Assembly (NCBI RefSeq): GCF_049969415.1
Contig: NZ_JBMFOX010000001.1
Span: 50,525 to 114,524 of the forward strand
Length of the DNA: 64,000 nucleotides
Direction of reading: 5' to 3'
Source: Candidatus Hadarchaeum sp.
Lineage (GTDB): Archaea; Hadarchaeota; Hadarchaeia; Hadarchaeales; Hadarchaeaceae
Within the stretch, counting starts at the first letter, position 1; the number at the start of each line of letters is the position of its first letter. The translations under genes were made by a program, and so were the position numbers. The notes beneath the pieces were generated by a model, which saw only the letters and a program-made list of their open reading frames with translations, had not been told where the DNA came from and did no database searches. This document shows, one piece after another, positions 39,955-57,400 of this stretch.

Positions 39955-41388
39955 TTGGTGAGGAGGGAGCGCTGGCGGCAGGATTTCAGCGGTTGGTTCA
40001 GCGACATCCTGCAGGAGGCGGACATCATGGACACCCGCTATCCGGTGAAGGGGCTGTACGTCTGGAGGCCCTACGGGATGAAGCTCCGCAATCTGGTTTT
40101 TTCGCTCCTGAGGCGGCTCCATGAGGATTCCGGACACGAGGAAGTGCTCTTCCCGCTGCTGATCCCGGAGACGCTGTTCCAGAAGGAGGCCGAACACATC
40201 CGGGGCTTCGGGGGACAGGTCTACTGGGTGACTCACGGCGGACACCAGAAGCTGGACGTCAGGCTGGCCCTGCGCCCGACCTCGGAGACCTCCATGTATC
40301 CAATGTTCGCCCTCTGGATCCGGACCCACGCCGACCTCCCGATCAAGGTCTACCAAGTCGTCAACGTCTTTCGCTATGAGACCAAGATGACCAAGCCACT
40401 GATCCGGCTGCGCGAGGTCACCACCTTCAAGGAGGCCCATACCGCCCACGCCACCGCCGAGGAGGCCGAGGCCCAGGTCAGAGAGGCCATCGAAATTTAC
40501 CGGAGATTCTACGAGGAACTCGGCGTCCCCTACGTGATCAGCAAGAGGCCGCCCTGGGACACATTTGCGGGCGCCGTTTACTCCATCGCCTTCGACACCG
40601 TCACCCCGGACGGGAAGGCGCTGCAGATCGGCACCATTCACAACCTGGGGCAGAACTTTGCCAAGGTCTACGGGCTGAAGTATGAGGGGGTGGACGGCAA
40701 GCACCACCACGTCTACCAGACCTGCTACGGCATCTCGGAGCGAGCGGTAGCGGCGACGATCATGGCCCACGGCGATGACGGCGGCCTCTGCCTGCCGCCG
40801 CACGTGGCCCCGATCCAGGTGGTGGTCATACCAATCCCGTTCAAGGAAAAGGAAACTCCGGTGGAGAGGGTTGCTGCCGAGGTGAAGGAAGAGCTCACGG
40901 CCGCGGGCATCCGGGCCCACCTCGACGATCGCGACCTCCGCCCGGGCAACAAGTTCTACCACTGGGAGCGGCGGGGGGTGCCGCTCAGGCTCGAGATCGG
41001 GCCCAAGGATGTGGAGAAGGAGCAGGTCACCGCCGTGCGCCGCGACACGGGTGAGAAGATCACCGTCGCCAGAAGTTCACTGCAAACTCAGGTGGAGGAG
41101 ATTTTGCAGCAGATTGCCGAACACCTCCGCGGGCGGGCCAAAAAAATGCTCGAGGAATCGGTCCGTGTTGCCGCGGACCTGAAATCGGCCAAGGAGCTGC
41201 TGAAAAAACAGGGGGGCATCGTCAGGGTCCCGTGGTGCGGTCGCGAATCTTGCGGCAAACAGTTGGCGGAAAAGGTCGAGGCGGAGATGCTCGGGGAGGA
41301 GATCGACAACAGGCCGGCGCAGGATGCCAGATGCCCGATCTGCGACCATCCGGCCACCGGGAACGCGCTTTTGGCTAAAACTTACTAA
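39955..41388 (+). CDS. proS: Proline--tRNA ligase (archaeal/eukaryotic type)
   Basis: YPVKG, LRPTSET, VFRYETK..PLIR.RE, QTCYGISER, C-terminal Zn Cys residues and terminal AKTY. Confidence 0.97.
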   Translation: MVRRERWRQDFSGWFSDILQEADIMDTRYPVKGLYVWRPYGMKLRNLVFSLLRRLHEDSGHEEVLFPLLIPETLFQKEAEHIRGFGGQVYWVTHGGHQKLDVRLALRPTSETSMYPMFALWIRTHADLPIKVYQVVNVFRYETKMTKPLIRLREVTTFKEAHTAHATAEEAEAQVREAIEIYRRFYEELGVPYVISKRPPWDTFAGAVYSIAFDTVTPDGKALQIGTIHNLGQNFAKVYGLKYEGVDGKHHHVYQTCYGISERAVAATIMAHGDDGGLCLPPHVAPIQVVVIPIPFKEKETPVERVAAEVKEELTAAGIRAHLDDRDLRPGNKFYHWERRGVPLRLEIGPKDVEKEQVTAVRRDTGEKITVARSSLQTQVEEILQQIAEHLRGRAKKMLEESVRVAADLKSAKELLKKQGGIVRVPWCGRESCGKQLAEKVEAEMLGEEIDNRPAQDARCPICDHPATGNALLAKTY

Positions 41389-41402
41389 GAATTTTTGGCA
41401 GG

Positions 41403-41487
41403 GGGTGGACGTATATGCGTCGCTCACCCCTGGGTGGACGTATATGCGTCGCTCACCCCTGGGTGGACGTATATGCGTCGCTCACCC
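41403..41487. repeat. Perfect tandem repeat, 29-bp period, about 2.9 copies of a palindromic unit (GGGTGGACGTATATGCGTCGCTCACCCCT)
   Basis: Copies start at 41403, 41432 and 41461 and are identical; the third lacks the final CT; internal symmetry GGGTG/CACCC and GACG/CGTC. Confidence 0.97.
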
Positions 41488-41534
41488 AACTTCGCCAATA
41501 TTCCTCAAAATTCCACAAAGCCGTTGAAACTGGC

Positions 41535-41557
41535 CAGAATTTGCGTCGAAAATTCTG
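41535..41557. other. Inverted repeat / hairpin CAGAATTT-N7-AAATTCTG
   Basis: Perfect 8-bp arms between the tandem repeat and the Cas2-like gene promoter. Confidence 0.6.
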
Positions 41558-41584
41558 AACCAGCCAGCGAATGTTTCGTTCCTG

Positions 41585-41591
41585 TTTATAA
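41585..41591 (+). promoter_or_regulatory. Putative TATA box (TTTATAA) of the Cas2-like gene
   Basis: TTTATAA ends 30 nt upstream of ATG 41621, typical archaeal spacing. Confidence 0.55.
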
Positions 41592-41620
41592 CGCCTCCAC
41601 CAAAATCACGGCGGAGCGCT

Positions 41621-41866
41621 ATGCGTCTTGATAAAATAAAATACCTGGTCATCTGGGACAAACCCGGCATCAGATCGGAACCGGGCAGATTTTACCGGAG
41701 GATAAAAACCGAGGGAGCAACTTTCATCCAGCGAAGCGTCTACGGCACGAAAACTCTCGAGAAAGCGCTGAACCTGGCCGTTCTCCTCCAGCGCCGTAAA
41801 GTCAACGTCCTGATTTTTCAGGCGAGGTGGATTAACCTCAGTCCTCACCATCAACCCAAGCGCTGA
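41621..41866 (+). CDS. Stand-alone Cas2/VapD-like small ferredoxin-fold protein
   Basis: YLVIWD (conserved Asp after beta1) and GATFIQRSVY match the Cas2 Y-L-x-x-Y-D and G-x-x-x-Q-x-S-V-F motifs; 81 aa; no other cas gene in the window. Confidence 0.7.
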   Translation: MRLDKIKYLVIWDKPGIRSEPGRFYRRIKTEGATFIQRSVYGTKTLEKALNLAVLLQRRKVNVLIFQARWINLSPHHQPKR

Positions 41867-57197: not shown

Positions 57198-57400
57198 TTT
57201 CTTCCTTTTTTTTATTTGCCTTATATATGTTCTAATTACTTTAAATATGTTCCTCTTAATTTAAAAAATTTAAAAAAAATGGAAAGAGAATTTCAAGGAG
57301 GTGGATTGAGTCAATTTCATTTCCTTCTGGAGATTGTTGCTCGGTAGATAGGCTGAGAAAATTTATGAGTATACACAGCGGCTAAGATAAATGGTAGCAA

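Follow-up and report, generated by a model that had tools for sequence, protein, structure and literature searches.

A stand-alone Cas2-fold protein family of Hadarchaeota is linked to clade-specific palindromes and may form a self-regulating DNA-binding cassette

Cas2 proteins (PF09827) form dimers that, within Cas1-Cas2 complexes, run along duplex DNA, and some Cas2 and VapD proteins are ribonucleases. Several described systems combine a small gene with nearby repeats or palindromes. In the type III toxin-antitoxin system ToxIN, tandem RNA repeats and a terminator accompany an endoribonuclease gene; RAYT transposase genes are flanked by cognate repetitive extragenic palindromic (REP) sequences; and PaaX-type repressors contain a Cas2-like domain, PaaX_M, in a protein tied to palindromic operators. 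In known archaeal repressors, a site located between the TATA box and the start blocks the recruitment of the polymerase. The Cas2 fold also occurs outside CRISPR loci, in VapD, which belongs to the VapXD pair, and in BPSL1038 of Burkholderia pseudomallei, a stand-alone Cas2/VapD-like nuclease that is reported to cut double-stranded DNA (PMC10491678); no cognate palindromes are described for these proteins in the literature consulted. A viral Cas2 homolog has been described as well (PMC10848311). Here, we analyse a stretch of 64,000 nucleotides (nt) of Candidatus Hadarchaeum sp. (contig NZ_JBMFOX010000001.1, positions 50,525 to 114,524; hereafter, the window), in which a gene encoding an 81-residue Cas2-fold protein lies between the prolyl-tRNA synthetase gene proS and a PfkB kinase gene, downstream of a tandem array of a 29-nt palindromic unit. 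Within the Cas2 superfamily, this protein is diverged and stands alone, and the genes of its family are linked to short palindromes that differ from one protein clade to another. As judged from these sequence patterns, the protein is probably a dimeric, sequence-specific DNA binder that regulates its own gene, and the tandem repeat of the window would then be an amplified operator array.

An earlier note, made from the letters of the window and a list of its open reading frames (ORFs), had assigned this gene to a stand-alone Cas2 fold on the basis of the hallmark motifs YLVIWD and GxxxIQRSVY. Both motifs are indeed present in the 81-residue ORF, and the combination of AlphaFold2, Foldseek and HHalign supports the fold. 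Taken alone, the window protein has no match in Pfam or NCBIfam at E values up to 10 and no sequence match in the PDB. However, an AlphaFold2 model built from an 86-sequence alignment has a predicted local distance difference test score (pLDDT) of 86.6 and a predicted template modelling score of 0.75, and its elements follow the order b1-a1-b2-b3-a2-b4 (b, strand; a, helix), which is that of Cas2. The ten best rows of a Foldseek search of this model against the PDB are all Cas2 chains (E values of 2.2e-3 to 8.6e-3, probabilities of 0.91-1.0), VapD appearing from rank 26. When the family profile was compared with the PDB sequences, the best match was the Cas2 chain 7cr6_E (E value 5e-4); nine of the 23 matches are named Cas2, and we take five more of them to be Cas2 structures. 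HHalign aligned the 86 family sequences with 15 real Cas2 proteins of the same phylum at a probability of 95.7% and an E value of 9.7e-9, pairing D13 with the Asp that ends strand 1 of Cas2, and Q37 and S39 with the Cas2 Q-x-S motif, while the close relatives alone gave a probability of only 30%. D13 is invariant in all 86 family sequences. A weak match to the Pfam Cas2 model was obtained for one of ten close relatives (E value 0.072), and a more distant clade comes near the cut-off of that model (23.4-23.6 bits versus 23.8). The remaining structure searches were less specific: a wide VIA-align search returned generic ferredoxin-like folds (RRM, ACT, PII-like and GHMP-kinase C-terminal; Z 6-7.8) with no Cas2 in its best 50 rows, and an ESM Atlas feature search peaked at a score of 0.85, which is below the meaningful level, with ChrB_N/PaaX_M clusters among the structural neighbours. 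A model from an alignment of ten sequences was dropped; it had a pLDDT of 59.8, a parallel strand order and meaningless Foldseek matches to phosphatases and Argonaute. The protein consists of a single domain of 81 residues, in which every secondary-structure element belongs to the ferredoxin-like core.

The family spans the Hadarchaeota and relatives from metagenomes. Initial sequence searches retrieved about ten close relatives of 68-88 residues, and a single-protein search of 1.84 billion representatives gave four matches, one of which (P0011) is a low-complexity artefact. When 66 genomes of the phylum were searched in six frames, the family was located in 19 of them (6 of the 26 high-quality genomes), and several more distant clades came to light. 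Profile searching of a large protein collection yielded 85 relatives, one of them labelled Bathyarchaeia and two named Cas2 by the source, whereas no relatives of two subfamily profiles were found in a viral contig collection. Annotation pipelines name the genes of this family "hypothetical" or mislabel them as Cas2. We found no description of a palindrome-paired Cas2-fold family in the literature searched, to which subscription journals largely did not belong, and the family is apparently undescribed so far.

The family shares with Cas2 the order of strands and helices, the fold, a detectable homology, the Asp at the end of strand 1, the Q-x-S motif and a similar size. Nevertheless, it is not Cas2 proper, as its members stay below the Pfam threshold, are not located beside cas1 or CRISPR arrays and lack the second Asp that is conserved in the Cas2 proteins of the phylum. 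The family proteins are basic (median isoelectric point 9.7, with 62 of 86 above 9, and 11.3 for the window protein), in contrast to the acidic-to-neutral segments of real Cas2 proteins, whose median is 5.7 with 1 of 15 above 9. In a quick maximum-likelihood tree, which is short and poorly resolved inside the groups, one branch splits the 15 Cas2 proteins from the 86 family members with a Shimodaira-Hasegawa-like approximate likelihood ratio test (SH-aLRT) value of 95.

The absence of cas1 from the window, as stated in the earlier note, agrees with the genome-wide picture: the Pfam models for Cas1 and Cas2 each match the genome once, both times on contig C59; no search for cas4, cas6 or effector genes was made in the window. 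On this 3.8-kb contig cas1 and cas2 lie together, accompanied by further ORFs, and its G+C content is 45.8%, compared with 53.9% for the genome, a difference that could reflect horizontal origin or a binning error. The CRISPR arrays of the genome are on contigs C53 and C135. It had been suggested that the locus could be a collapsed CRISPR array, and a proto-CRISPR array with an orphan cas2 would be a related possibility: the repeat is CRISPR-sized (29 nt), partly palindromic and located beside a Cas2-fold gene. We consider this extremely improbable. The array contains no spacers, the CRISPR repeat of the genome is a 37-mer, GTTGCTGTTCCCTATCCCTCGTTTGAGCTACTGAAAC, that is unrelated to the 29-nt unit, and what is repeated in the relatives is a core of 14 base pairs (bp) rather than the 29-nt unit. 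Moreover, a strong match to Cas2 is found in only 5 of the 19 genomes that contain the family, and the quick tree places family and Cas2 on different sides of one branch. The family is without a link to cas1 or CRISPR.

The earlier note described the array as three identical 29-bp palindromic units. The array is present, but only the units at 41403-41431 and 41432-41460 are identical; the third, at 41461-41489, matches them at 27 of 29 positions, and the palindrome is imperfect. Its inner 14-mer, GACGTATATGCGTC, has one mismatched pair, and the outer GGGTG/CACCC pair is offset by 3 nt. The units follow one another head to tail with a period of 29 nt and, as noted earlier, without spacers. Tandem Repeats Finder reports 2.9 copies with 100% matches and a score of 170, by far the highest of the 27 rows for the window. 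The 27-nt core of the unit occurs three times in the genome (1.47 Mb, 138 contigs), always at this locus, and its reversed control does not occur. Among sequencing runs, three DNA runs each contained a small share of the sequence words (0.04-0.06), and no RNA run was listed.

That repeat and gene form one module, as had been proposed, is borne out by the homologs, at whose loci the same core is repeated. Close relatives have kept not the 29-nt unit but its 14-bp core, at an irregular spacing of ~35-60 nt upstream of the gene. The core or its clade variant is present in 3-9 copies per close homolog locus, with four copies at L006 and nine at L008; L007 has three copies of a compensated variant, GTCGTATATACGAC, and L017 has about eight GACGAATATTCGAC-like sites. 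In close relatives, the copy over the start codon, ATGCGTCGC, encodes Met-Arg-Arg, and an intact core covers the ATG at L006, L008, L018, L034, L025, L027 and L033. Other clades have other palindromes. One clade carries a copy of CTACGTAGGTACGTAG at the start and three past the stop, another has about ten copies of TTGCGCACGTGCGCAA, a third has copies of TGTCTCATATGAGACA on both flanks of the gene, and a fourth has six copies of CTACGAAGGTTCGTAG. In the clade with TGGCGAACGTTCGCCA, the sequence ATGGCGAACGTTCGCCAC encodes Met-Ala-Asn-Val-Arg-His, and the clade palindromes TGTCAAACGTTTGACA and TAGTAATTACTA show the same kind of layout. There are at least eight different palindromes, each belonging to one protein clade, and their size is 12-18 bp depending on the clade. 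Usually, one site is located at the promoter or the start codon and the others are further upstream or just past the stop. A TATA-like box ~30-50 nt 5' of the coding start is present in all the clades inspected, and several of them have a CAAAGCCTCGGCGGGA-like leader in common. The TATA box that had been pointed out in the window is present there as TTTATAA (Table 1).

The sites keep constant positions in a large subgroup of 93-residue proteins, of which 16 metagenome loci were found, ten of them complete. The core GTAATTAC is located at -18 in all ten, at about -49 in eight and 8-12 nt past the stop in nine; the two upstream sites enclose the TATA-like box. These sites were counted by the position of the 8-mer core after a stricter statistic, described below, had undercounted them. 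At the locus of a divergent member of this subgroup (L088, ~805-825), the site past the stop, GACGTATATACGTAC, resembles the palindrome of the window's clade and not that of its own subgroup.

For the strict statistic, a locus had to contain, within the gene and 450 bp on either side of it, at least three copies (at most one mismatch each) of a 12-mer palindrome with at most one mismatched pair. Fourteen of the 17 loci used for discovery qualify, two more have two copies and one has a single copy. The 17 do not include L011-L014, which duplicate L007, L008, L006 and the window, the broken genes at L016 and L022, or L028, L029 and L031, which are truncated by contig ends. Among nine test loci that were reached through weak Pfam-Cas2 matches and had not been inspected beforehand, four qualify and the other five have one copy. 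By comparison, none of 11 real Cas2 loci does (the 11 of 18 strong-Cas2 loci whose gene could be placed with the family profile), nor does any of 500 random 1100-bp windows of the same genome, 26 of which have two copies. The linkage between gene and palindrome is shown by a statistical excess.

The cassette is a one-gene module. A Pfam scan of 42 neighbouring ORFs at family loci revealed no recurring partner and no cas genes, and the neighbours are unrelated housekeeping genes, such as those for MoeA, CinA, Ogt, RtcA, PhoU/PHO4, ProRS, HerA, a YgjP-like peptidase, topoisomerase VI subunit A and IF-2. The absence of a VapX-type antitoxin, remarked upon in the earlier note, thus extends to the other loci examined, where no neighbour is conserved. 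The family resembles VapD and BPSL1038 in having a Cas2 fold outside CRISPR loci and a conserved Asp. However, VapD ranks below Cas2 in the fold search, and because there is no VapX-like partner gene, the cassette is not a VapD-VapX pair.

What reads the palindromes can be approached from these data. Within a locus the copies are alike, between clades they differ, no other gene travels with them, the sites lie around the promoter, and the protein is very basic; for these reasons we favour the protein itself as the reader. We infer this recognition from co-occurrence and co-variation alone, and the protein has no recognised DNA-binding motif, which gives room for an alternative in which the palindromes are bound by another, trans-encoded factor or act as a DNA structure, the small protein having an unrelated job. 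This is improbable. The palindrome differs from one protein clade to the next while being kept identical among the copies at one locus, and as no second gene accompanies the cassette, any other reader would need to diversify in step from an unlinked locus.

According to the reading that we consider probable, that of a self-regulating DNA-binding protein, the 81-residue protein would bind double-stranded DNA in a sequence-specific manner, with a twofold-symmetric dimer reading a palindrome of 12-18 bp. Such a dimer is the natural model by analogy, since Cas2 dimers lie along duplex DNA. In the usual layout of the family, one site is found either on the start codon or between it and the TATA box, often with a second one just 5' of the TATA box; the bound protein would block TBP, TFB or RNA polymerase and repress its own gene. 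In the window, the promoter-proximal site has decayed to a half-site, and the core has been amplified instead, by tandem duplication of a 29-bp unit, into the three upstream copies; the array might thus serve as the operator or loading array of the cassette. The 29-bp spacing of these copies is slightly less than three helical turns, which would place them near the same face of the helix and favour cooperative binding. On the present patterns, the cassette appears most like an autoregulated repressor with its operator, because the sites are on its own promoter or start and their sequence co-varies with the clade. Unlike PaaX-type repressors, which have a winged helix, the family has none and the whole protein corresponds to the Cas2-like domain; if the protein binds DNA, the Cas2 fold itself must therefore do the reading.

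The dimer on DNA and the autorepression are drawn from analogy; a homodimer prediction with two copies and the alignment scored 0.32, compared with a mark of 0.42 and with 0.30 for one control, and speaks neither for nor against a dimer. Several observations weigh against the proposal. No recognised DNA-binding motif was found in the window protein. The Asp of the Cas2 type is invariant (86 of 86), which a pure repressor would not obviously need; as this leaves nuclease activity open, we retain the two nuclease-based alternatives discussed below. At the window locus, the site nearest the promoter matches the core at just 10 of 14 positions, and the intact sites, 130-215 bp 5' of the ATG, are too far upstream for simple promoter occlusion. 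In the B clade (C4 in the window's own genome, and genome G033), most copies are 3' of the gene and not 5'. The strict statistic missed five of the nine test loci, and in the 93-residue subgroup it was satisfied by four of the ten loci, one locus having two copies only and five of the ten failing. It should be noted that this statistic undercounts AT-rich and imperfect sites: with a filter requiring a G+C of at least 4, nothing was recovered in the 93-residue subgroup, and the four loci appeared when the filter was relaxed. Finally, some solitary palindromes inside genes, described below, are too long to be due to chance, and neither autoregulation nor a simple regulon explains them.

The first of the nuclease-based alternatives acts on RNA. 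On this view, the protein would be a Cas2/VapD-like endoribonuclease for which the palindromes are hairpins in RNA, either at the 5' end and in the 3' UTR of its own transcript or in RNA that continues from proS; it would limit its own mRNA or be restrained by the repeat RNA, as in type III toxin-antitoxin systems. In favour of this, the catalytic Asp of Cas2 and VapD is invariant, the titles of PDB entries call SSO8090 an RNase and HP0315 an endoribonuclease, and in several clades one site lies over the start codon and further sites lie past the stop, which would place both kinds within the mRNA. The region 41395-41625 also folds well as RNA (z = -4.8), which follows from its being made up of palindromes. 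However, sites 5' of the TATA box (those at -49 in the 93-residue subgroup, and those of C10 and C15), as well as the arrays upstream of a conserved TATA box (in the window, L006 and L008), do not belong to the transcript of the gene itself. Most palindromes have self-complementary centres, the central four bases being themselves palindromic in five of seven motif classes, and the loop of a hairpin does not require this. Imperfect copies are found in both orientations, one of which turns a U-G pair into a C-A mismatch. These three points, namely the centres, the sites outside the transcript and the two orientations, favour DNA over RNA.

The particular arrangement of ToxIN, a possibility raised in the earlier note, resembles the window alone, with its tandem repeats, inverted repeat and small gene with a nuclease fold. 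This layout is not common to the relatives, in which the palindromes are scattered around the TATA box, the start and the stop; tandem arrays are exceptional (in the window, G034 and C4) and irregular spacing is the rule. In addition, a TATA box separates the repeats from the gene, and the fold is different from that of the ToxIN nuclease. The hairpin that had been described between the array and the gene exists as an inverted repeat, not with arms of 8 bp but of 11 nt, which are 91% complementary and separated by a 1-nt gap. It is not conserved at the syntenic sites of genomes G034 and G035, which argues against the toxin-antitoxin layout, in which it would be the terminator. Taking both sides together, an RNA-level module is unlikely, and its toxin-antitoxin form does not fit the relatives.

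The order proS-cassette-PfkB is common to three species of the window's genus. In G034, an independent genome, four mutually identical units with three substitutions relative to those of the window follow proS, and in G035, a single degenerate unit accompanies a decayed gene. The TATA box is kept as ATTTATAAAG in G034 and as ATTTACAAAA in G035, and both have kept the leader. Synteny in three species with a varying number of units indicates vertical descent with a dynamic copy number, and argues against an assembly artefact, which had been named as a way in which the array could prove spurious. It also speaks, together with the absence of mobile-element genes nearby, against the proposal that the locus is the remnant of an integrated element.

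A broader version of that idea would regard the cassette as selfish or mobile, with a site-specific nuclease or recombination factor whose sites are the palindromes, loosely like RAYT with REP. The patchy distribution of the family (19 of 66 genomes), the variety of its contexts among housekeeping genes, the fast diversification of specificity and the invariant Asp would fit such a role. So would genome G033, in which three cassette copies (L018 on C104, L031 on C30 and L034 on C160) are ~95% identical, pointing to recent duplication or movement. Decayed copies are present in G035, in G037 and at G015:C196, and at G023:C9 (L073 1380-1700) an array with a remnant of promoter and leader has lost the gene, ~100 nt 5' of a gene for a secreted staphylococcal-nuclease-like protein with a lamin-tail domain. 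Solitary palindromes of 16-18 bp, far too long for chance, also exist elsewhere, some of them within genes. On the other hand, the edges of the segments duplicated in G033 are off the palindromes; the left ends differ between the copies and none coincides with a palindrome. No target-site duplications were seen, the proS-cassette-PfkB order in three species fits vertical descent with decay, the two subfamily profiles lack relatives on viral contigs, and the C10 paralog heads the cdc48 operon as an ordinary regulator would. The likeness to RAYT and REP consists in a single gene with cognate palindromes that co-vary with the clade and in extra solitary copies in the genome, but the family protein is half the size, has neither an HUH motif nor a conserved catalytic Tyr, and has few solitary sites, 1-6 per genome, compared with the hundreds typical of REPs. 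We therefore regard a selfish cassette as rather unlikely.

The features of the window locus and of the paralogous cassettes in the same genome are given in Table 1.

Table 1. Coordinates of the features at the window locus and of three further cassettes of the same genome (plain numbers are positions in the window)
Feature	Position	Strand	Remarks
ProRS gene (proS)	39955-41388		Upstream flank; Pfam; 14 nt between stop and array
Tandem array, 2.9 copies of 29-nt unit GGGTGGACGTATATGCGTCGCTCACCCCT	41403..41489	+	Putative amplified operator array
First copy of the 14-bp core palindrome GACGTATATGCGTC, with a single mismatched pair	41408..41421		Same core at L006, L008 and L015
Core palindrome copy 2	41437..41450		29 bp after copy 1
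Core palindrome copy 3	41466..41479		29 bp after copy 2
Inverted repeat, arms CAGAATTTGCG / CGAAAATTCTG, 11 nt each	41535..41557		Specific to the window's genome
TATA-like box TTTATAA	41585..41591	+	~30 nt 5' of ATG
Conserved leader CCAAAATCACGGCGGA	41600..41615	+	Counterpart in other clades is CAAAGCCTCGGCGGGA
Degenerate palindrome copy over start codon, GAGCGCTATGCGTC	41614..41627		10/14 match to core; right half TATGCGTC intact
Stand-alone Cas2-fold gene, 81 residues, isoelectric point 11.3	41621..41866	+	Carries YLVIWD and GATFIQRSVY
C4 paralog (YLVIFDKAG...WIQRSAI)	C4:7446-7800 (L030 1492-1860)		Followed by three 31-nt tandem units, core CTACGCATATACGTAG; common 12-nt core
C15 gene, 71 residues	L097 1400-1800	-	GTTCACGGCCGTGCAC twice upstream around TATA-like box, once past stop
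C10 gene, ~90 residues (LLVWDVKS...FINRSTL)	L098 1778-2160	-	Directly before cdc48

The Cas2-fold gene shares its final 16 nt with the 3' end of a convergent gene for a PfkB kinase, which is followed by a gene for myo-inositol-1-phosphate synthase (both by Pfam). Elsewhere in the window, at 57221-57277, an AT-rich tandem repeat (a 20-nt unit in 2.2 copies, overlapping a 9-nt repeat) lies in G+C-rich surroundings.

Each of the three further cassettes, C4, C15 and C10, has its own palindrome. That of C4 is situated between a YgjP-like peptidase gene (Pfam) and the gene for topoisomerase VI subunit A; the ORF preceding the YgjP-like gene resembles, by eye, the C-terminal part of the type I restriction enzyme HsdR. 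In this genome, the 12-mer core of the window occurs in the two arrays only, plus one site inside a gene, where it encodes GTYMR. The C15 gene matches the family weakly (E value 0.038), lacks the conserved Gln and is located upstream of an NTPase gene (PF03266). At C10, three copies of TTTGTTATAAATATAACAAA, an AT-rich palindrome of 20 bp, are arranged around the TATA-like box. The position of this paralog at the head of the cdc48 operon suggests that some members of the family act as ordinary transcription factors and control an operon.

In other genomes, most palindrome copies are at the cassette, and the solitary full-length sites elsewhere are located in different settings. Intergenic or promoter sites are found upstream of the S15 gene and between divergent RFC and PfkB genes, and sites inside genes are found in those for a CofH-like radical SAM protein (L066 1583), a PQQ beta-propeller protein (L074 1548) and an aminotransferase (L077 1516). 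A regulon was considered for the window's clade and rejected, as the solitary sites are few and mixed (promoters, gene interiors and decayed cassettes) and form no clear regulon.

If the proposed reading is correct, the family would represent sequence-specific DNA binders based on the Cas2 fold alone, with no helix-turn-helix, ribbon-helix-helix or zinc motif, and hence a new archaeal scaffold for reading DNA. It would also make dozens of naturally paired proteins and sites available for deducing a recognition code, and it would explain a set of genes that are currently called "hypothetical" or mislabelled as Cas2. For annotation, the lesson is that a CRISPR-sized repeat beside a Cas2-like gene need not be CRISPR. 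The family also bears on the origin of Cas2 and on why the CRISPR adaptation complex needs this protein. As a long shot, very improbable on present evidence, it may be a free-living sister group of Cas2 that retains an older job, the recognition of palindromic repeats that readily multiply in tandem, with the Cas2 fold alone reading the sequence. Cas2 would then have joined CRISPR as a binder of repeats rather than as a nuclease derived from a toxin, and the closest living model of a "repeat plus reader" stage that preceded the spacers would be found in these cassettes.

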